Assembly: GCA_963665295.1 (NCBI GenBank)
Contig: OY762209.1
Coordinates: forward strand, 2,752,001 to 2,816,000
DNA length: 64,000 nt
Reading direction: 5' to 3'
Origin: Syntrophorhabdaceae bacterium
Lineage (GTDB): Bacteria > Desulfobacterota > Syntrophorhabdia > Syntrophorhabdales > Syntrophorhabdaceae
The notes beneath the pieces were generated by a model, which was given only the letters and a program-made list of their open reading frames with translations, did no database searches and was not told the origin of the DNA. Each line of letters opens with the position of its first letter. Positions within the stretch are counted from its first letter, which is position 1. Below, one piece after another: positions 48,152 to 62,036 of this stretch. The position numbers and the translations under genes are program-made.

Positions 48152-49576
48152 ATGGCAAGGGTCCTGATCATAGACGATGATGAGATAATATCGGAGATGC
48201 TTTCCGACATGGTCTCTATCTGGGGACATGACGCGGCCACCGCCGGAACCCTCGAGGAAGGACTGGAGAAGGTCCGGTCGGACTCCTACGACGTGGTATT
48301 TCTCGACATAAGACTGCCGGACGGCAGCGGTCTCGACATATTGCCGAAGATCCGGGAAGCATCATCATCCCCGGAGATCATTATTATCACAGGTTTCGGT
48401 GATCCTGATGGGGCGGAACTCGCCATAAAGAACGGGGCCTGGGACTACATCGAGAAGTCTTCTTCCATAAAGGAAATGGAACTGCCCTTTGTACGGGCCA
48501 TCCAATACCGACAGGAAAAACGGTCGAAGATGCCCCCGGTGTTGTTGAAACGTGAAAACATTATAGGAAGCTCGCCCCAGATGCAGACTTGCTTTGATTT
48601 TCTGGCGCAAACGGCCAACAGTGAAGCCAACGTGCTTGTTTTCGGAGAGACCGGCACGGGCAAGGAACTTTTCGCAAGGGCTATTCACGACAATAGTTCG
48701 AGAGCGCACAAGAACTTCGTTGTCGTGGATTGCGCATCCTTCCCTGAGACCCTTGTGGAGAGCATAATTTTCGGCCACGAAAAGGGTGCGTTTACCGGGG
48801 CGGACAAGGCGCAAGACGGCTTGATCAAACAGGCCCACGGAGGAACCCTTTTCCTCGACGAAATCGGGGAGCTCCCCCTCTCGATCCAGAAGACCTTCCT
48901 CAGGGTACTTCAGGAACACCGGTTTCGCCCGGTGGGGGGCAAACACGAGATCGAAAGCAATTTCAGACTCATCTCAGCGACAAACAAGGACCTTGCCCTC
49001 ATGGTTTCAAAGGGCAGGTTCCGTGAAGACCTTTTGTTCCGCCTGCGCACCCTCAGTGTCGAATTGCCTCCCCTAAGGACCCACCAGGGGGACATCAAAG
49101 AACTGGCCATCTATTACGTAACAAGGATCTGTGAGCGTTACGGGGTCGGGATAAAGGGTTTTTCCTCGGATTTCCTGGAGGCCCTCATGGCCTACGAATG
49201 GCCGGGGAACGTGCGGGAACTGGTGAATGCCCTTGAAAGGGCAATATCCGCGGCGTTCCATGAGCCCACCCTGTTCCCCAAACACCTTCCCACGGAAATA
49301 AGGGTTCAGGTGGCGCGGGCCTCGGTATTCAAGGAGAACCCGGGACCGGGGAGCGAAGTGAAACCCGTCGATTCCCGTCCGACCCTTGAACCGTTAAGGG
49401 AATACAGGGACGCAGCCATTGCGAAGGCGGAGAAATCCTATCTGGAAGACTTGATACGCCTGACCGCGGGCAATATTAAGGAAGCCTGCCACATGTCGGG
49501 CCTATCGAGGCCACGTTTGTACGCCCTCCTGAAGCAGTATAATATCCGGACAGTAAGACACGAAATAGAAGAGTAG
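48152..49576 (+). CDS. Sigma54-dependent response regulator (NtrC family, REC-AAA+-Fis HTH)
   Basis: [13 protein letters not shown] receiver; [41 protein letters not shown]-terminal HTH. Confidence 0.95.
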
Positions 49577-49627: not shown

Positions 49628-49798
49628 GTCTCATAGGGAAAGACAGAAAGTCTTGTGTAACGAGAATTATGTCTTGCATAACAAGACAGTGAGCCTTTTC
49701 CTTTATACCATGGATGCCGGGGTTTCCCTGAAAAATGCGCCCTGAAGGCCCTCTCACGGGGTCCTGTTCCCTCCCTTATCTCTGGCACATATATTGAA
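49628..49798 (+). promoter_or_regulatory. Sigma54 promoter with three upstream palindromic activator-site candidates
   Basis: TGGCAC-atata-TTGA at 49783-49797; GTCT-N9-AGA(C) units at 49628, 49650 and 49671. Confidence 0.7.
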
Positions 49799-49820
49799 TG
49801 TTCTTCCGTGGAACGAAGAC

Positions 49821-50267
49821 ATGTTGACCAAAACCCCTAATGGACTCTGGAGAGAGGAACGGCCCGGCGCAGGAAACAGACTCAACGTCATCCTTTATGT
49901 GCGGGACTCGGATATTCTGAAAGCGATTGAGGAAGCGTTTTCCAGAGTGATACCCGCTGTCCGGATAGAGTTCTGCCGGACTATAGAGACATTTGTGGAG
50001 AGTCTCCGGAAGCTTGCCTACGACCGCACTGTCGCGGTGATTGTAGTTACCGACAGGAGCGACCTCGAGAATATCACTTCACTCCAGCGGTTCTTGCTGA
50101 CCTTACGCACCATACTTGTGCTCCCCGACGGCGATGACCAGATGGTCGCCATGGCGCATAGTCTGAGACCGCGGTTTGTCAGCCACCATGAGGACGATTT
50201 TACGAATGTAGTTGCCGTTTTGAATAAAATGCTCGCTGAACTCAATTCAAAACCACGTATGGAATAA
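49821..50267 (+). CDS. Hypothetical protein, possible degenerate receiver-like fold
   Basis: Alternating beta/alpha pattern (VILYV, IEFC, VAVIVV, TILVLP, RPRFV) without a canonical DD/D/K set; start uncertain. Confidence 0.6.
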   Translation: MLTKTPNGLWREERPGAGNRLNVILYVRDSDILKAIEEAFSRVIPAVRIEFCRTIETFVESLRKLAYDRTVAVIVVTDRSDLENITSLQRFLLTLRTILVLPDGDDQMVAMAHSLRPRFVSHHEDDFTNVVAVLNKMLAELNSKPRME

Positions 50268-50280
50268 GGAGGTTTCGATT

Positions 50281-50562
50281 ATGGATGCTCTTCATCAGGG
50301 ACAAAACGTGCCGGAAACGCAGTGGGTTGTCGATCGAAACAATGGTATGCCGATTCTGGACCGGTCCTCTTACGGTCAGCCGGATGTAAAGCTCATGGAT
50401 AACCTGCATACCATCCTGACCCTTTCCCTGGTATTTTTTGAGAAAATTGTGAAACCCTTCGACGACCGGACCGGTATGTCTCCCTTCAATGAAGACGAAG
50501 GCGACTGCGGGGAGCGTTCGTGGGGCCCATTGAGCAACGCGGAAAGGATCCGGATTACGTGA
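50281..50562 (+). CDS. Hypothetical protein (93 aa)
   Basis: TAAGGAGG RBS directly after the previous stop; no motif recognised. Confidence 0.5.
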   Translation: MDALHQGQNVPETQWVVDRNNGMPILDRSSYGQPDVKLMDNLHTILTLSLVFFEKIVKPFDDRTGMSPFNEDEGDCGERSWGPLSNAERIRIT

Positions 50563-50702
50563 GGAAGGCCCTCCTGGCGCCTTTAGCCCGGAGTTGGGGG
50601 AGTCCCGTGGGCCACAGGTTGCCATGTGCGGCCGGGATACCCGGGGAGACGGACCCTGCTTTTTTGATTACACAAGTCGGACAAAACTGAGAAGGAGGAA
50701 GG

Positions 50703-51656
50703 ATGAGCGCACCTCAGACGAGCGAAACCCAATGGAAATACCCCGGAGAAGCAATAGGAAACCGGCTCAGCCGGTGGAGCGGGCGGGAGTTGACGGAGGG
50801 ACGGCAGGGAGGGCTCAAGATGGTTGGCGCGTACACGCCTGCCAATCTTCATCATGTAAAGGAAATGGTGGGTGTAGTTGAATTTGCTTCGGACGTGGCG
50901 CACCACTTCAATAACATTCTGGCTATAGTATCGGGTTACGGAGGCCTCCTGAAGGTAAAGATGTCCAAAGACGACCCCTCCCTGACCTACGTGGAGAAGA
51001 TGCTCGCCTCGTCGCAGAAGGCGCAGGATGTGATCCGCAGCCTTTTCGTGTTTTCGGGAAACGAGCGGATCATATTAAGAGAAATGGACCTGAACAAGGT
51101 AATCAAGCGAGCTACGAGGTTCCTTGAGTCCGGTGAATCCGGGCCGGAGAAGAAGGTGGAAATGAGGCTGGAGCTCCACGAGGGCGAGTTGATCGTTATG
51201 GCCGATGTTGTCCGGATGGAGGAAGTTCTTGCAAATCTGATAGGTAACGCACGGGACGCCATGCCTAGTGGCGGGATAGTGACTTTGCGCACCGAACCGA
51301 TGACTTTGGGCCACGCCGGGAGCGGCGGATCCCGCTTCGCGAGCATCACCGTGACGGATACGGGTTCGGGCATGGATAAAGAAACCAGGGAAAGGATGTT
51401 CGATCCCTTTTTCACCACAAAAGGGCCTGGGAGGAATATCGGACTCGGCCTTTCCAAGGTGTATGGCATCGTGAAGGCCCATTCAGGTGAAATGACCGTT
51501 GAAAGCGCGCCGGGAGAAGGGACTTCGGTAAGGATCCGCGTACCCCTCGTACGAAGCGAGGCCAGGCTCATGGACCCCATACCGCTTCCTGACTCGATTG
51601 TGGCGGGAAGGCTGCACCTTTGCAGCTCATATATAGGTGAGACCATATGTGAGTGA
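50703..51656 (+). CDS. Histidine kinase-like protein (HisKA-HATPase) without sensor or receiver domain
   Basis: DVAHHFNNIL, NARDAM, DTGSGM, FDPFFTTK, GLGLS; AGGAGG RBS. Confidence 0.85.
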   Translation: MSAPQTSETQWKYPGEAIGNRLSRWSGRELTEGRQGGLKMVGAYTPANLHHVKEMVGVVEFASDVAHHFNNILAIVSGYGGLLKVKMSKDDPSLTYVEKMLASSQKAQDVIRSLFVFSGNERIILREMDLNKVIKRATRFLESGESGPEKKVEMRLELHEGELIVMADVVRMEEVLANLIGNARDAMPSGGIVTLRTEPMTLGHAGSGGSRFASITVTDTGSGMDKETRERMFDPFFTTKGPGRNIGLGLSKVYGIVKAHSGEMTVESAPGEGTSVRIRVPLVRSEARLMDPIPLPDSIVAGRLHLCSSYIGETICE

Positions 51657-54110: not shown

Positions 54111-55722
54111 GGGTTATCCTTTCAGGGTATTGTATCCTGTGGTGGAATGTGCCTATCAGGATCGCGATGAAACTTTTCCGTATGGCATGAAGGTCCTTGA
54201 GGGTGAGTTCACATTCGTCGAGTTGTCCGTCAAGGAAGATGCGCTCTATGATGTTCTGCACGTGGGTCTCAATCCGTTTCGGCGTGGGCTCGTCGAGTAT
54301 TCTTGAGGCTGCCTCCACCGCGTCGGCAAGCATCAATATACCTGCTTCCTTCGTCTGAGGTTTCGGTCCTGCGTACCGGAACTCCTTTTCATCCACGAGG
54401 AAAAGCTTCGGGTCTTCCAGTTCCTTTGCCCTGTTGAAAAAATAACTGACAAGGCTTGTCCCGTGGTGCTGTTGTATCATGTCGGTGATCTTTTGCCCGA
54501 GTTTGTGTCTTTCCGCAAGCTCCATTCCTTCTTTCACGTGGGAGAGGATGATGAGGGCGCTCATATGGGGGGTAAGGGATTTGTGGGCGTCTTCAAAATC
54601 GGTCCTGTTTTCGATGAAATAATGGGGCATCTTGAGTTTCCCTATGTCGTGGTAGTACGCGGACACCCGTGTGAGGAGAGGGTGGGCCCCGATACTCTCC
54701 GCAGCCGCCTTGCCGAGGTTGCCCACGATAATGCTGTGGTGATATGTGCCCGGAGCTTCGAGCATCATGGCTTCAAGGAGAGGGTGCTCCAGGTTCGCGA
54801 GTTCGAGGAGTTTTATGTCCGTCGTGTAGCCAAAGAGATATTCTATGACGGGGAGGAGCCCGAGGGCGATGAAGCTGCTGCCTATGCCGGAGAGGAGAAT
54901 GAGGGCTATCTTGGCCGGGATATTGCCTGAAGGTTCGCCGAGCAGCACATGGTAGAGGACCATTATGAAACCCATGAAGAAGGCGGTGAAGATTCCTGCT
55001 TTGAGTATGGTATTCCTGTCCTCGCATTTGCCGGAGAAATGAGAGGCGAGGATATTCGCGAGAAAGGTATAGAGAAATACCTGCAGGCTGTTCTGGAAGG
55101 CAAACCCCATGGCGATGCCGAAAACAAGGGAGAAGGTGATCGCTGCCTCCGAAAAGAGAACGACCCGCATAATGATCCCGAACAGAAAGATAGGCACCAC
55201 GTAAAAGAGGTCCGCAATGTTATCCCGGGCAAAGTGACCGAAAATAAGGAAAGAACTCTTTACGAAGGCGACGGTGAACACGGTGAGGACAGCGCCGAAA
55301 ATAAGGTCTTTTCGGGACAGGGAGAATTTTTTGATATTCTTCTCTCCGTACTGGTAAATCACCGTTATGGACAAAAAGAGGATCGCGAAGATGGAAAGGA
55401 ACTTCCGTATATCGAGGGCCTCCCCTTTTTCGATCTGTTTCAGGACGGAAAGTATCCGCAGTTGGGAGTCGCTTATCCGTTCCCCCTCCCTCACGATGAT
55501 TTCCCCCTTCTTGATTACCGTGTCGGTGCCGGGGACACGGAACTGCTGGGGAGATTTTACATTTTCTCTTGCAATGTCGCCATCCTGGTACTCGGTGATG
55601 ACGAAGGGATACGTGACGTGGATGATCAGAGTGAGAGACAAGGCAAAGAGCAGGAGAATCAGCACCCTCTTCCAGTCGGGATACGACGGAGGTTTGTCCT
55701 TCTTGTCCTTAACGCCCTGCAT
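54007..55722 (-). CDS. 7TM-HD membrane phosphohydrolase (PgpH/YqfF-like)
   Basis: Multi-TM block then LLELAN, APGTYHHS, YYHDIGK, QHHGT, LADAVEAA. Confidence 0.9.
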   Translation of the reverse strand: MQGVKDKKDKPPSYPDWKRVLILLLFALSLTLIIHVTYPFVITEYQDGDIARENVKSPQQFRVPGTDTVIKKGEIIVREGERISDSQLRILSVLKQIEKGEALDIRKFLSIFAILFLSITVIYQYGEKNIKKFSLSRKDLIFGAVLTVFTVAFVKSSFLIFGHFARDNIADLFYVVPIFLFGIIMRVVLFSEAAITFSLVFGIAMGFAFQNSLQVFLYTFLANILASHFSGKCEDRNTILKAGIFTAFFMGFIMVLYHVLLGEPSGNIPAKIALILLSGIGSSFIALGLLPVIEYLFGYTTDIKLLELANLEHPLLEAMMLEAPGTYHHSIIVGNLGKAAAESIGAHPLLTRVSAYYHDIGKLKMPHYFIENRTDFEDAHKSLTPHMSALIILSHVKEGMELAERHKLGQKITDMIQQHHGTSLVSYFFNRAKELEDPKLFLVDEKEFRYAGPKPQTKEAGILMLADAVEAASRILDEPTPKRIETHVQNIIERIFLDGQLDECELTLKDLHAIRKSFIAILIGTFHHRIQYPERITHDSSDKRFPKIVEGGQKANTKDNGKPAHVFKATG

Positions 55723-56707
55723 TTTTCTTTTCCCCCTCAGTCTGCGCCTTCTTCTCGTAGGCCTTGATAATCTTTTGAACGAGGGGATGTCTGACTATGT
55801 CCGTCCCCGTAAAATTGACGAACTTGATGCCCTTTATCCCTTTGAGGACAGTCTGAATCTCTACGAGGCCGCTCGATCTCTTGTCGGGGAGGTCGATCTG
55901 GGTGACATCGCCCGTAATAACCGTGCGTGACGAGAAACCGAGCCTGGTAAGGAACATCTTCATCTGCTCCGACGCGGTGTTCTGGGCTTCGTCCAATATG
56001 ACGAATGCGTCGTTCAAGGTCCTGCCGCGCATAAAGGCCAGGGGTGCTATCTCGATAACGCCTTTCTCCAGCAGGCGGGAGGCCCTTTCCATATCGACCA
56101 TGTCGTAGAGCGCGTCATAGAGCGGTCTCAGGTAAGGGTTTACCTTGTCATAGAGGGTCCCGGGCAGGTAGCCCAGCTTCTCTCCTGCCTCGATGGCGGG
56201 CCTTGTGAGGATGATTCGCGATACCTCTTTCCTGTAATATGATGAGAGGGCCATGGCCATGGCAAGGTATGTCTTGCCGGTCCCCGCAGGGCCGATGCCG
56301 ATTACCATGTCATGGGTCCTGATGGCCTCCAGGTATGCTTTCTGGTTGCTTGTCTTCGGGGTTATCAGCTTTTTGGAGGGAAATATATAGACCTGGTCCT
56401 TGTAAAGCTCATCTGCGGCGCCGTGGGTGTGGGCGATATAACGCACGGCATGGTCTATATCGGCGGGATTCACGATAAAGCCCTTTTTGATGATGCCCTG
56501 GAGTTCGCCGATAACCTTGTTCGTATTTTCGACTTCCTTCTTCTCTCCGATTATGGTGAGGTGGTTCCCTCTTATGCTTGTCTTGACATTGAAGTACTTC
56601 TTCAGATACTTAATGTTTTCGTCCCGGGGACCAAATAGGTTGCGTGCTACGTTTGTATCATCAAAGGACAGTTTGATGAGCCCTTCTTCATTCCTTCTTT
56701 CTTCCAA
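55709..56707 (-). CDS. phoH: PhoH-family ATPase
   Basis: GPAGTGKTYLA, LTRPAIEAGE, PLAFMRGRT, LDEAQN, GDVTQIDLP, VRHPLV. Confidence 0.95.
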   Translation of the reverse strand: MEERRNEEGLIKLSFDDTNVARNLFGPRDENIKYLKKYFNVKTSIRGNHLTIIGEKKEVENTNKVIGELQGIIKKGFIVNPADIDHAVRYIAHTHGAADELYKDQVYIFPSKKLITPKTSNQKAYLEAIRTHDMVIGIGPAGTGKTYLAMAMALSSYYRKEVSRIILTRPAIEAGEKLGYLPGTLYDKVNPYLRPLYDALYDMVDMERASRLLEKGVIEIAPLAFMRGRTLNDAFVILDEAQNTASEQMKMFLTRLGFSSRTVITGDVTQIDLPDKRSSGLVEIQTVLKGIKGIKFVNFTGTDIVRHPLVQKIIKAYEKKAQTEGEKKNAGR

Positions 56708-56856
56708 TAAAAGCCTTGCCGACCTCCTTAGGGGGGATTTTCATTCTGGTAGGATATTATATCATAATATTCAGTTTTGCAAGGGTTATCCCATAGCGTG
56801 GCCCTGGCGCGGGAAACGATTGTAAAACCAAATTATTTCAAGTAGACTATTAACAC

Positions 56857-58101
56857 ATGCGTAAAGTCCTTATCATAGACGATGAAAAGAACATACTCGA
56901 AAGCCTTTCCTCGATCCTCGGTGACGAAGGTTTTCAGGTACTGAAGGCGATCGACGGCCACGAGGGGCTTTCCATATTCGAAAAGGAGAAGCCCGGAGTG
57001 GTGCTTCTCGATATATGGATGCCCGAGATGGACGGACTGCAGGTGTTGAAGTTGATCCGCGAGAAGGACAAAGACGCCGTCGTGATCGTAATGTCGGGAC
57101 ATGGGACCATCTCCACGGCGGTTGAGGCGGTAAAGATGGGCGCCTATGATTTCCTCGAAAAACCTCTTTCCATAGACAAGGTGCTGGAAGTGATAGTGAG
57201 AAGCCTGGCCGGGGAAGCCCAGGAGAAGGGCCCGGTGGAGGATGTGAAAATCCAGATATCGAAGGGTGACAATATCCGCACTCAAAAGACCATAGGTAAG
57301 AGCATCGTCGTCTATGGCATGGGTCTCTTTTCCGGGGTAAAGACGGGTATGATACTGCTTCCCATGCCTGAAGACTCAGGCATCGTCTTTGAACATATCC
57401 CCGATGGCGAGCGTATTCCTGCCTATATCGATTACGTGTACTCCGTGGGCTACTCTTCATCCGTTAAAGGGAAGACCTGCATCGTGAGGACGATCGAGCA
57501 TCTGCTCGCCACGTTCCACATGTACGGTATTACCAATCTTCTCGTAAAGGTGAGCGAGGAGATACCCATTTTCGATGGTTCCGCAATAGAGATATGCAGC
57601 AAGATAGAGGAAGCGGGTGTGGTGGAGCAAAAAGAGGGGGTTGAACCTTTGAGGATTCGGGAAAAGGTGGTCCTCTCAAGCCTGAACGACTCCCAATACC
57701 TCTTTATAGAACCCTCCGACGTGTTCGAGATAGATTACGTCCTGGAACACCCGAAGCCGGTAGGCAGCCAGAGATACCATTTCAAGGGCGGCAAGGCCGC
57801 GTTCCTGAAGGAGGTTGCTCCTGCGAGAACCTTCGGTTCCATCAGGGATTTCGAGCGTCTTGCGAAAATAGGGCAGGGCGGCAGGATCGACAACGTGATG
57901 ACCAATGTGATAATCCTGAGCGATGAAGGAGTGGTAAACACCACGCTACGGTTTCCGGATGAGTTTGTCCGGCACAAGATACTTGATATCATCGGAGACA
58001 CATACCTCCTCAACCGGCCCATTATCGGAAAGATATCGGCCAGGCAGACCGGGCACATCGAAAATATCGCCCTCATGAAGGAACTCAAGAAGCGCTTCTA
58101 G
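56857..58101 (+). CDS. lpxC: Receiver domain fused to UDP-3-O-acyl-GlcNAc deacetylase LpxC
   Basis: Residues ~1-116 form a receiver (IIDDE, LLDIWMP, SGHG, FLEKP); then QKTI..GMGLFSG, TIEHLL, EIPIFDGS, APARTFG, DEFVRHKILDIIGD, TGH. Confidence 0.9.
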   Translation: MRKVLIIDDEKNILESLSSILGDEGFQVLKAIDGHEGLSIFEKEKPGVVLLDIWMPEMDGLQVLKLIREKDKDAVVIVMSGHGTISTAVEAVKMGAYDFLEKPLSIDKVLEVIVRSLAGEAQEKGPVEDVKIQISKGDNIRTQKTIGKSIVVYGMGLFSGVKTGMILLPMPEDSGIVFEHIPDGERIPAYIDYVYSVGYSSSVKGKTCIVRTIEHLLATFHMYGITNLLVKVSEEIPIFDGSAIEICSKIEEAGVVEQKEGVEPLRIREKVVLSSLNDSQYLFIEPSDVFEIDYVLEHPKPVGSQRYHFKGGKAAFLKEVAPARTFGSIRDFERLAKIGQGGRIDNVMTNVIILSDEGVVNTTLRFPDEFVRHKILDIIGDTYLLNRPIIGKISARQTGHIENIALMKELKKRF

Positions 58102-58730: not shown

Positions 58731-61406
58731 TTATTTCAGGGCCAGCCGCACCTGGGTTGTCTCTCCGTCCTCTTCGCGTTCCATGGTGAACCCCAATTTG
58801 AGGACTATTCGAAGCATCTTGTCGTTTTCCGAGAGCACGGTCCCGTGGATTCCCTCAAGACCCTGGTCCTGGGCCACCCCTATGAGCACGTCCACCAGTT
58901 TGTAACCGAGCCCTTTCCCTTGAAAATTATCATGGACGAGGACGGCGTACTCGGCCTCCCGAAAATCAGGATCGACGATAAGCCTTCCGATGGCCACGAT
59001 CCTTTTCTGCTCGCCTTCCCGGACCTCCGCCACAATAGCCATCTCCCTCTCGTAGTCTATGTTGCAGAACCGGACAAGCATTTCGTGAGAGATATCGCTT
59101 ATCATGGAGAAGAATCTGGTACGCATCGTCTCCGGTTTGAGGGTGGCGAGCATCTCATGCTCCAGGTGTTCATCCTCGGGCTTGATGGGGCGCAGGGTCA
59201 TCTGAGTCCCATCGGGTAATTCGTAGGTCGTTACATACCGGGTAGGGTAGGGCGTTATTACGAGATGGGGGTATGGGGATTCATAGTCCATGGACTCCCT
59301 GTCGATCACTATCCTCGCATCGAGTGAGTACACCCCGCCTTTTGATATGGCAATGGGGTTTATGTCCATTTCCGCGATTTCCGGAAAGTCCACTATGAGG
59401 TTGGAAAAACTTACCAATATCTGTTCAAGCCGTTTCATGTCGGCAGGCGGTCTCCCTCTGAAGCCCTTAAGCATCTTGTATACTTCGGTTTCCTCCATCA
59501 GCCTTCGCGCAAGGGTCTGGTTGAGCGGCGGGAGACCTATGGCCACGTCCTTAAAGACCTCCGTTCCTATGCCGCCCATGCCGAAGAGGATCACCGTTCC
59601 GAAATCCTTATCCTTTTTCGCGCCGAGGATGACTTCGTAGTCTATCTTCGGAATCATCTTCTGGACGGATATCCCTTTTATCGAGGCTTCCGGCGCGTTC
59701 AACTCCACGCTGGTCAGCAGGTGGGCATATTCAGACTTCAGTTGGGCATCCGATTCTATCCCGACCTTCACTCCCCCCACATCACTCTTATGAGATATGT
59801 CGTGGGAAACCACCTTGAGGACCACGGGGTACCCTATTCTTCTCGCCGCAGCCAGCGCGGTTTCCACATCCCGGACCATGTACGGATCGGTTCTCGGTAT
59901 GTCGTAGTTTACCAGAAAATCCTTCGATTCCCCCTCGGTCAGAAGGGTCCTCCCTTCCCTTGCGATTCGCCGGAGAAGAACTTTCAGATGGTTCTTCGAT
60001 GGCGCCTGTTTCACGGTAAGCTCCGTGGGTGTTTCGTAAAGGAGGGTAAGGTTCCTATGGTACCGGTACATGTAGAAGTACGTTTTTACCGCGTCTTCCG
60101 GGGTGTCGTAGGTGGGAATGCTGTTTTGAAGGAACAGGTCTCTCGCTTTCTGCACCGTTTCTCCACCCACGAAGGCGGTGATTACGGGCTTCCGGCAGGT
60201 ACGGGCTATTTCCACGATAGACCCGGCAAGGGTCTCGGCATTGAGGATGGCCTGAGGTCCGTAGATCGCGAGAAGCCCATCAACCTCACGGTCGCGAAGA
60301 CATATCTTGATAGCCGATGCATAGCGTTCGCTGTCCGCGTCTCCCAACACGTCCACGGGGTTTCCCTTGCTCCAGAAGGGTGGAAGAATGGCGTTCAACT
60401 CGCCGATGGTTTCATCGGAAAGCTTTGAAAGCTCTCCATGGAGGTCCATCACCGTATCGGTAGCCATGACGCCGAAACCTCCGGCGTTGGTGACAATGGC
60501 CAGCTTGCGTCCTTTGGGGAGATAATTCGAGTCGAGAACCGAGGCGGCATTGAAGAGATCGGAGAATTCCCTGACACGGATTACACCCGCCCGTTTAAAC
60601 GCGGCGTCATAAACCTGATCGTCGCCCGCCAGGGCGCCCGTGTGGGAAAGGGCCGCCTTTGCGCTCTCCGGAAATCTGCCCGGTTTTACGATAACTATGG
60701 GTTTGGTTCTTGCAAAGCCCCGGGCGGCGCTCATAAACTTTTTTGCATTTCCCACCCCTTCCATGTAGAGCATGATGCTCCTCGTATAACGGTCGCTTCC
60801 GAGGAAGTCGATGAGATCACCGAAATCCATATCGATCATCGACCCGAGGGAGGCGAACATGCTGAAGCCCACGTGGGCCTTTATGGCCCAGTCTAGTATG
60901 GCCCCTCCAAGGGCGCCGCTCTGCGAGATAAATGCGATATTTCCCGGGTCCGGGTTGGCCTTGAGGAAGGACGCGTTCAACCCCGTGTGGGGTCGTATCA
61001 CGCCTATGCAGTTTGGCCCCACAACCCGGATCCCGTATTCCTTTCTTACCGCGAGTATTTTCTCTTCGAGAAGCAGGCCCTCTTTCCCCACCTCCTTGAA
61101 GCCCGACGAGACAATGACGGCCCCTTGTACATCGGCCCGGGCGCATTCCTCGACAAGTTCAGGCACGGTGTTCGCGGGAGTGGCAATAACCGCGAGGTCA
61201 ATGGGTTCCGATATGTCCGCCACACCGGGGTAGCACCTGAGCCCCATAATGCTCTCCTTGCCGGGGTTCACAGGGAATATCCTTCGCTTCCCCGGGGCCG
61301 TAAGGTTTTCGAGGATTGCCCGCCCTACGGACCCTTCCTCCTCGCTCGCGCCGATGAGGGCCACGGTAGCCGGATTGAACATGGCGTTGATGCTGTGTGA
61401 TTTCAT
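58731..61406 (-). CDS. Acyl-CoA synthetase (NDP-forming)-like/GNAT fusion, Pat/YfiQ-type protein lysine acetyltransferase
   Basis: ALIGAS, GPNCIG, SQSGA, SHTGALAG, NPVDVLGDA, HKSDVGGV, DINP, C-terminal GNAT (RPIKPED, QGKGLG). Confidence 0.9.
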   Translation of the reverse strand: MKSHSINAMFNPATVALIGASEEEGSVGRAILENLTAPGKRRIFPVNPGKESIMGLRCYPGVADISEPIDLAVIATPANTVPELVEECARADVQGAVIVSSGFKEVGKEGLLLEEKILAVRKEYGIRVVGPNCIGVIRPHTGLNASFLKANPDPGNIAFISQSGALGGAILDWAIKAHVGFSMFASLGSMIDMDFGDLIDFLGSDRYTRSIMLYMEGVGNAKKFMSAARGFARTKPIVIVKPGRFPESAKAALSHTGALAGDDQVYDAAFKRAGVIRVREFSDLFNAASVLDSNYLPKGRKLAIVTNAGGFGVMATDTVMDLHGELSKLSDETIGELNAILPPFWSKGNPVDVLGDADSERYASAIKICLRDREVDGLLAIYGPQAILNAETLAGSIVEIARTCRKPVITAFVGGETVQKARDLFLQNSIPTYDTPEDAVKTYFYMYRYHRNLTLLYETPTELTVKQAPSKNHLKVLLRRIAREGRTLLTEGESKDFLVNYDIPRTDPYMVRDVETALAAARRIGYPVVLKVVSHDISHKSDVGGVKVGIESDAQLKSEYAHLLTSVELNAPEASIKGISVQKMIPKIDYEVILGAKKDKDFGTVILFGMGGIGTEVFKDVAIGLPPLNQTLARRLMEETEVYKMLKGFRGRPPADMKRLEQILVSFSNLIVDFPEIAEMDINPIAISKGGVYSLDARIVIDRESMDYESPYPHLVITPYPTRYVTTYELPDGTQMTLRPIKPEDEHLEHEMLATLKPETMRTRFFSMISDISHEMLVRFCNIDYEREMAIVAEVREGEQKRIVAIGRLIVDPDFREAEYAVLVHDNFQGKGLGYKLVDVLIGVAQDQGLEGIHGTVLSENDKMLRIVLKLGFTMEREEDGETTQVRLALK

Positions 61407-61697
61407 CTCATTTATTCTCCTCTTCCCACTTCCCTCAAAACCCCGGGGACAGGGCCGGCGGCATGGACGCAACAAGGCGACCCCTCCCGAACAGGTTATT
61501 TGCCGTTAAGTGCGTTGAATTTCATGACGCCCATCTCATGGCCCGCCGTGCGCGACGGGTACAGGCAGGATGTCTACAGCTCGAATGGAAAAGATGGGCC
61601 ATGGGACGCCCGTGCCGGTGTTCATCGTCATTATCTCCGCCCGAATAATTCCGATGCCGATAGGGAAACTGTATGCCGGGATTATGCTGTTTCCCGG

Positions 61698-62036
61698 TCA
61701 GCAGGAAACCATGATCTCTCCGCAACAGACCAGGTCGCACTCACCGGAGCAGGAACAGATCCTTTCCACTACTACAGCCATTCCGCACGACGGACACTCG
61801 AAACGGGCGCCTGCTGCGGTCACGGGTTTTCCGGGGGCTCTTTTCTTGGCTGGGGCAGCCTTCTTTGCGGGCGCCGCTTCTACCGCGGCCGTCCTGCCGG
61901 GGGCAGCCGCCCTTTTCCGGGCGGGCGCGGGCGCACTCTTCCCGGCGGCAACGGTTGCTTTCTTCTGCGGTTCCCTTTTTGACGCGGCTTCAGCTTTGAC
62001 GGTCTTTTCTTTACCTTCCGCCTTCTTCATCGCCAT
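61698..62036 (-). CDS. Ala/Lys/Pro-rich protein with C-terminal desulforedoxin-like Cys domain
   Basis: PAKKAAPAKK low-complexity region followed by FECPSCG...CSC..CDLVCCGEIM. Confidence 0.72.
   Translation of the reverse strand: MAMKKAEGKEKTVKAEAASKREPQKKATVAAGKSAPAPARKRAAAPGRTAAVEAAPAKKAAPAKKRAPGKPVTAAGARFECPSCGMAVVVERICSCSGECDLVCCGEIMVSC

Follow-up and report, generated by a model that had tools for sequence, protein, structure and literature searches.

Fusion of an NtrX-type receiver domain to the only LpxC of a Syntrophorhabdaceae bacterium suggests direct two-component control of lipid A synthesis

LpxC is the enzyme that commits the cell to lipid A synthesis, and in E. coli it carries a C-terminal degron. 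Response regulators with enzymatic output are known: in the CheB methylesterase, the GGDEF proteins PleD and WspR, and the REC-HD-GYP proteins a receiver is linked to a catalytic domain, and in CheB, PleD and WspR phosphorylation of the receiver gates catalysis. The outputs of these proteins are mostly signalling enzymes, whereas the protein described here carries the committed enzyme of a core pathway, in its only copy. A fusion of LpxC to a second domain is found in LpxC-FabZ (PRK13188), where the partner is a C-terminal dehydratase. LpxC is a known control point, subject in E. coli to proteolysis through FtsH/LapB/YejM and to inhibition by LapB, and in P. aeruginosa to activation by MurA, so that a bound protein can tune its activity allosterically (PMC13333357, PMC12444477); in these cases regulator and enzyme are separate proteins and phosphorylation plays no part. 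The accessible portions of these two reviews on LpxC control gave no match to fusion terms or to 'response regulator', and full-text searches listed no paper that appears to describe a REC-LpxC protein, although surveys of response-regulator architectures or their supplements may list it. Direct control of LpxC by phosphorylation would be a new mode.

The closest two-component systems act on lpxC at the level of transcription. The NtrY-NtrX system of Rhodobacter sphaeroides and Caulobacter crescentus has a kinase of the architecture NtrY_N-HAMP-PAS-HisKA-HATPase (PMC7240162, 10.1101/2021.04.17.440287), as found here, together with a receiver of the type matched by the fusion and a tie to the envelope and lpxC. 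NtrX is there a DNA-binding regulator with an indirect and negative effect on lpxC: deletion of NtrYX in R. sphaeroides raised the lpxC transcript 8.8-fold and doubled LPS (PMC7240162). In the fusion, by contrast, AAA+ and HTH are both absent and the enzyme is part of the same protein as the receiver. In Desulfovibrio vulgaris, which belongs to the same broad phylum, the two-component sigma-54 activator system DVU2931/DVU2934 acts on lpxC (DVU2917). DVU2934 carries GAFTGA, shares an operon with a kinase and has lpxC as its single mapped target (PMC3333781, PMC4641369); the passages on it do not name it as an NtrX ortholog. This system fits the lpxC-ntrY-ntrX clusters with sigma-54 sites described below, but its control is transcriptional and its LpxC is a separate protein, unlike the fusion. 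Sigma-54 promoters are also enriched before lpxC in Myxococcia (PMC12316311).

The window analysed here is a stretch of 64,000 nucleotides from a Syntrophorhabdaceae genome (contig OY762209.1). The locus has the following features:

56857..58101, plus strand: REC-LpxC fusion gene, 414 aa, the sole lpxC of the host genome
56866..57195, plus strand: NtrX-type receiver domain, aa 4-113 (PF00072; best NCBIfam receiver match is NtrX)
57010..57012, plus strand: Asp52, the phospho-acceptor predicted from conservation
57214..57273, plus strand: flexible linker, aa 120-139 (pLDDT below 50 at 120-133 and 136-139)
57283..58089, plus strand: LpxC deacetylase domain, aa 143-411 (from Pfam, alignment and the predicted model compared with solved LpxC)

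The initial annotation had read this gene as one uninterrupted ORF with an intact receiver and an LpxC part that keeps its zinc and catalytic motifs, and each of these points was borne out. The frame contains no internal stop. Pfam places Response_reg at aa 4-113 with 106 bits (cut-off 30.2) and LpxC (PF03331) at aa 143-411 with 234 bits (cut-off 27), covering positions 1-267 of the 268 of the profile, and TIGR00325 (lpxC) scores 192.2 bits, above its cut-off of 187.25. The receiver has the (beta-alpha)5 fold, the acidic pocket D8-D9-E10, the phospho-Asp D52 within LLDIWMP followed by W54, the switch residue S80 and the Lys-Pro pair K102-P103. In the LpxC domain, E214, H215, T325, H373, K374, D377 and H400 align with the solved P. 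aeruginosa enzyme, with the E214-H215 pair and the motif H373-K374-x-x-D377 kept. The zinc ligands and catalytic residues given for E. coli LpxC in PMC13333357 (H79, H238, D242, E78, T191 and H265) have their counterparts in H215, H373, D377, E214, T325 and H400, which are invariant or nearly so in the fusions.

One departure concerns the GxGLHSG motif, whose His, expected of an LpxC, is replaced by Phe (F158) in the window protein. Phe is found at this position in 41/242 short fusions, while 50 of 54 receiver-less rows have His. The position is not a zinc ligand, and membership in the LpxC family is unaffected; the site corresponds to H19 of E. coli, and the loss of a usually conserved His may lower activity. 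This departure had been missed by the initial annotation, as had the NtrX origin of the receiver and the candidate kinase discussed below. The suggestion that the genome be checked for a further lpxC was followed up: the host genome (5.5 Mb in one contig, 98% complete) has a single LpxC match, which is the fusion, and lpxA, lpxB, lpxK and waaA are all found. On these grounds the LpxC domain is probably a working deacetylase. An LpxC-FabZ identity was rejected: the score for PRK13188 is 169.8 bits, far from the cut-off of 465 and owed to the LpxC part only, and there is no C-terminal FabZ, the protein stopping at aa 414 straight after the catalytic domain, without a C-terminal tail.

It is clear that the fusion is real, given its presence in independent genomes. 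The domain-architecture search proposed earlier recovered the same design in homologs across several phyla. Both Pfam domains are present in 120/120 of the best homologs (the best 120 of 8000 candidates scored), with coverage of 100 or 99% and 68-100% identity to the window protein. Among the best 80 of 516 confirmed GTDB loci the match spans the junction in 76, including Syntrophorhabdus aromaticivorans, many Binatia, two Bdellovibrionota and one frameshifted locus (L077), while the remaining four are stand-alone NtrX. In the order of the host, 76/81 genomes have an LpxC match and none has a second full copy; the frames are longer than 410 aa except for six, mostly at contig ends. Members of the fusion cluster carry the names Nitrospinota, Entotheonellia, Deltaproteobacteria and one Spirochaetota, and public annotations label the protein 'LpxC' or 'NtrX', which masks the fusion. 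In the phylum sample, frames of 440-490 aa were considered as LpxC-FabZ and this was rejected, as 27/27 fetched loci proved to be receiver fusions. An assembly artefact or a recently lost stop codon, which the initial annotation had named as what would overturn its reading, therefore has a negligible probability: the best homologs and GTDB loci are fused almost throughout, and the host genome has neither a second lpxC nor an NtrX.

The receiver itself likely descends from NtrX, although the protein is not an NtrX. Its identity is 46-57% when compared with 25 stand-alone NtrX receivers and mostly 25-42% when compared with the other receivers of the host genome, and among 130 receiver-domain matches in that genome it is the sole carrier of the D[ILVM]W motif. 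W54 is present in 296/296 fusions and in 26/26 rows of the NtrX set, so that identity, W54 and gene order all point to an NtrX-type receiver in partnership with NtrY. The whole-protein NtrX model (NF051870) gives only 126 bits against its cut-off of 600, and AAA+ and HTH are absent; the phylum's stand-alone NtrX, for which this model is the best match, scores 527 bits and also falls under this cut-off.

Longer relatives appear to record how the fusion came about. A profile-free search of cluster representatives returned proteins of 680-740 aa, some of them carrying NtrX as their JGI name, and Pfam, run on 50 of the 150 matches, gave the architectures REC-Sigma54_activat-AAA_lid-LpxC, REC-HTH_8-LpxC and REC-LpxC. 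The 296 fusions, a set that is not deduplicated and counts the window protein twice, comprise 242 REC-LpxC, 19 REC-HTH-LpxC, 8 REC-AAA-LpxC and 27 REC-AAA-HTH-LpxC. The AAA+ and HTH domains occupy the position of the linker (aa 120-139 in the window protein), which measures 23-67 aa in the short forms and 258-348 aa in AAA-bearing forms. GAFTGA, the xxDE Walker B and the DLxYRL Arg-finger motif are each found in 0/35 AAA-bearing fusions, compared with 24-25 of the 26 NtrX-set rows, in which the odd row resembles a truncated fusion. By its sequence the AAA+ activator part of the long fusions is dead, with Walker A and lid regions still present. The phospho-pocket has a different history, with D52 in 294/296 fusions (241/242 short, 53/54 long) and 26/26 NtrX-set rows, K102 in 295/296 and S/T80 in 296/296. 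Two fusions of the same subclade, P0143 and P0151, have Asn and Ser in place of the phospho-Asp and are natural pseudo-receiver variants. Mean identity of the homologs to the window protein is 65% for the receiver and 62% for LpxC, the receiver being no less conserved than the enzyme.

A quick tree was built from 93 LpxC domains, and a branch with an SH-aLRT of 99 sets apart a group that contains all 48 fused rows. Four receiver-less rows belong to that group; two of them may be cut, their contigs being only about 900 bp long, while the others may be true losses, and at least one receiver-less LpxC nested among fusions sits on a long contig. The fusion probably arose once, a single origin being compatible with this tree. 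As for the loss of AAA+, the short forms need seven changes on the quick tree, while a single short-form clade was not rejected (p-AU 0.605).

Within the window, the statement in the initial annotation that no cognate kinase is adjacent is correct. A kinase-like ORF at 50703-51656 was rejected as a partner, as it lacks an H-box of the NtrY type and does not accompany the fusion in relatives; the regulator at 48152-49576 was ruled out for the latter reason. This sigma-54 response regulator is followed on the plus strand (49794-51656) by two ORFs, one of 157 aa that resembles a degenerate receiver without a Pfam match and one of 317 aa with HisKA-HATPase and no sensor domain. On the other side of the fusion, on the minus strand, lie two further genes. 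One (58731-61475) encodes an acetate-CoA-ligase-like protein of 914 aa that ends in a GNAT domain, the architecture of a Pat-type acetyltransferase; the product of the other (61698-62036), 112 aa long and without a Pfam match, is rich in Ala and Lys and has a Cys-rich C-terminus (CPSC...CSC...C...CC).

Elsewhere, gene order points to a partner. In 30 of the 33 loci L045-L077, which are mostly from Binatia, the gene directly upstream of the fusion encodes a kinase of the NtrY type on the same strand; such a kinase is also directly upstream in 7 of 27 loci of the phylum sample, while none was found within 6 kb in 43 loci (L002-L044). A profile built from 28 of the fusion-adjacent kinases identifies one clear NtrY ortholog in the host genome, at 746479-748611, which scores 604 bits where the second-best kinase reaches 170. 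It has NtrY_N (29.3 bits against 23.2), HAMP, PAS, HisKA and HATPase domains and an intact H-box like that of the operon-encoded NtrY. The gene lies about 2 Mb from the fusion and is flanked by a laccase-like gene and smpB; it has no neighbouring receiver gene and is thus an orphan. Integrase-like and other foreign-looking ORFs follow smpB (749400-757000 of the host genome), which suggests an island inserted at the tmRNA gene. In the order as a whole 77/81 genomes have an NtrY match, and all 33 NtrY loci fetched have an intact H-box and no adjacent receiver. By orthology and gene order, this NtrY is likely the cognate kinase of the fusion.

The distribution of stand-alone NtrX is in line with this assignment. 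The phylum sample comprised 121 genomes, 28 of them fused (27 fetched and confirmed, plus that of the window); the 93 non-fused genomes include two without an LpxC match and one with a fragment, and an LpxC frame no longer than 393 aa was counted as stand-alone, with 13 checked. Stand-alone NtrX, called at E below 1e-136 and so clear of the paralog background, occurs in 0/28 fused and 81/93 other genomes, counts that are not independent events since the genomes are kin. NtrY was found in 27/28 fused genomes, 67/81 NtrX-bearing genomes and 2/12 genomes with neither, the absences being soft because the query at E 1e-100 missed it in 14 of the 81 NtrX-bearing genomes. Given the absence of NtrX from the fused genomes and the near-constant presence of NtrY, it appears that the fusion has replaced NtrX and that NtrY has been retained for it. 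Two genomes depart from the simple pattern: G065 has the fusion with NtrY undetected at E 1e-100, and G032 (loci L128 and L136) combines a divergent REC-LpxC with a stand-alone lpxC elsewhere that lies beside ntrY and is preceded by a sigma-54 site, with stand-alone NtrX undetected.

The upstream regions of the two kinds of lpxC differ as well. In many stand-alone genomes the gene order is lpxC-ntrY-ntrX, and in a set of 13 such loci, chosen for the proximity of lpxC and ntrY, a sigma-54-type site lies 20-150 nt upstream of 8 (shuffled mean 0.24), a site being at least 9 of 12 matches to the consensus. These sites fit the literature on DVU2934 and Myxococcia cited above. Upstream of the fusion such a site was found in 0/45 loci of the window's lineage, and two other counts, 0/29 and 0/23, carry little weight, the regions before ntrY in operon-type fusions lying outside the scan. 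The fusion is preceded instead by the following:

56820..56848, plus strand: TTGTAA-N17-TAGACT, a predicted promoter of the sigma-70 type that stops 8 nt short of the ATG, with no Shine-Dalgarno
55709..56707, minus strand: phoH-like gene, the start of a divergent phoH / 7TM-HD / ybeY / lnt cluster

The promoter-scan tool omitted this promoter, which has 8 of 12 matches against a threshold of 9. Nonetheless, the pattern TTGnnn-N16-18-TAnnnT ending 5-10 nt before the start is found in 36/45 loci of the lineage (shuffled mean 0.69), none of these 36 having a Shine-Dalgarno, and seven of the nine loci without it (L037-L043) appear to lie behind another gene. The transcript is thus predicted to be leaderless or nearly so. 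The same pattern precedes 55 of 2834 long ORFs of the host genome, suggesting a set of leaderless mRNAs. The phoH-like gene is, from gene order alone, a conserved neighbour in the lineage.

The structure predicted for the window protein by AlphaFold2 from an alignment of 128 rows has a pLDDT of 89 and a pTM of 0.88, with the linker alone disordered, and its LpxC domain matches solved LpxC with an rmsd of about 2 A and a target TM of 0.81-0.93. A second run on another family member gave a pTM of 0.81, from 54 rows of which none is from the lineage of the window and most are shared with the first alignment. Given that a freely floating receiver would be expected to give about 0.67-0.71 (a rough calculation for 414 aa), both values suggest that the receiver docks on the LpxC domain in a defined pose, with the qualification that pTM is a global rather than interface-specific score and that AlphaFold can pack tethered domains spuriously. 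An underpowered covariation analysis of the two domains (effective n about 85) gave no credible contacts, its top pairs resembling noise, and a two-chain prediction of receiver 1-120 with LpxC 139-414 scored 0.08 against a mark of 0.32, without control runs; neither speaks for or against docking. G164 and K231 are candidates for the docking face, each being conserved in 98% of fused LpxC compared with 7% and 2%, respectively, of 42 stand-alone LpxC. A working mode like that of CheB would rest on these pTM values and on conservation.

The initial annotation proposed that lipid A flux may be directly controlled by two-component phosphorylation. Comparison favours this reading, given the near-invariant phospho-pocket, the sole LpxC, the decayed activator parts and an NtrY without another NtrX-type partner, with control of stability or of localisation also to be considered. 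That NtrY phosphorylates D52 and that the receiver then alters LpxC activity in cis is judged moderately probable. Phosphorylation might instead set the half-life of LpxC, by exposing or hiding a degron for FtsH/LapB, Lon or ClpXP, and leave the catalytic rate as it is. The abundance of E. coli LpxC is under proteolytic control, according to PMC13333357, and a LapB-like gene in the host means that proteolytic control is possible there as well. Its product (457 aa, at 1371879-1373252 of the host genome) has N-terminal membrane segments and a C-terminal zinc ribbon of the LapB type, possibly being a LapA-LapB-like fusion, but the LapB call is based on a 28-residue profile and the appearance of the N-terminus. 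No match to the YejM family of anti-adaptors was found in the host genome, a role that another input could fill. Against a set half-life, the protein ends at aa 414 and so has no tail comparable to the degron of E. coli LpxC; moreover, the residues conserved specifically in fusions are located in the catalytic domain. This reading is therefore unlikely.

It is also conceivable that the receiver works without an intramolecular switch, as a tether or reporter that recruits LpxC to NtrY, dimerises it, or feeds substrate occupancy back to the kinase. The substrate of LpxC is membrane-associated, NtrY is retained alongside the fusion, NtrC-family receivers often dimerise, and the Walker A and lid remnants of the dead AAA+ domain could oligomerise. 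In the absence of stand-alone NtrX, however, LpxC is the only known downstream output, and both AlphaFold scores exceed the expectation for a floating receiver, so that this possibility is regarded as quite unlikely. Finally, the receiver could be a passive relic of an old fusion, retained for folding or for the start of translation. The receiver-less members inside the fusion clade and the two Asp52-less proteins among 296 mean that the receiver can be lost, which counts against the switch, as do the failure to detect NtrY in G065 and the presence of both kinds of lpxC in G032. Nonetheless, across several phyla the phospho-pocket has hardly varied, whereas AAA+ and HTH decayed and were deleted, and an intact orphan NtrY is kept in 77 of 81 genomes of the order, which makes a relic very unlikely.

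The direct phospho-switch would have come about as follows. An ancestral NtrY-NtrX pair may have activated lpxC from a sigma-54 promoter; ntrX would then have fused to lpxC, and the AAA+ and DNA-binding parts, once dispensable, would have eroded. In the lineage of the window, the gene would have left the vicinity of ntrY and gained a promoter of the housekeeping type. At present, the orphan membrane kinase NtrY would phosphorylate Asp52, phosphorylation would shift the contact of the docked receiver with the LpxC domain, and deacetylase activity, rather than transcription of the gene, would be switched directly. As to the sign of the switch, the better guess is activation by relief of inhibition, as occurs upon phosphorylation of CheB, because the ancestral NtrX-type protein would have activated lpxC; the lowering of the lpxC transcript by alphaproteobacterial NtrYX points to the opposite sign. 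We lean slightly towards the overall reading that control of lpxC was rewired from transcription to a direct phospho-switch in which NtrY senses the state of the envelope and the docked receiver gates catalysis, through one ancient fusion that now occurs in Syntrophorhabdia, Binatia, other Desulfobacterota, Nitrospinota, Entotheonellia and further groups.

Two recent reviews stress the question of how LpxC is controlled in bacteria other than E. coli and Pseudomonas, and a system of one protein and one kinase makes control of the committed step testable in the tube. If the phospho-switch is true, this would be the first phosphorylation-gated LpxC, and a natural allosteric site would be exposed on an antibiotic target; the receiver-docking surface would mark a site of the kind wanted by a 2026 review. 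The series of intermediates would then document how control passed from transcription to the protein itself. What NtrY does, long a matter of dispute, is also narrowed down, given that in the fused lineages its only NtrX-type partner is LpxC; the signal of NtrY should therefore concern the envelope, and its class is likely the state of the envelope.
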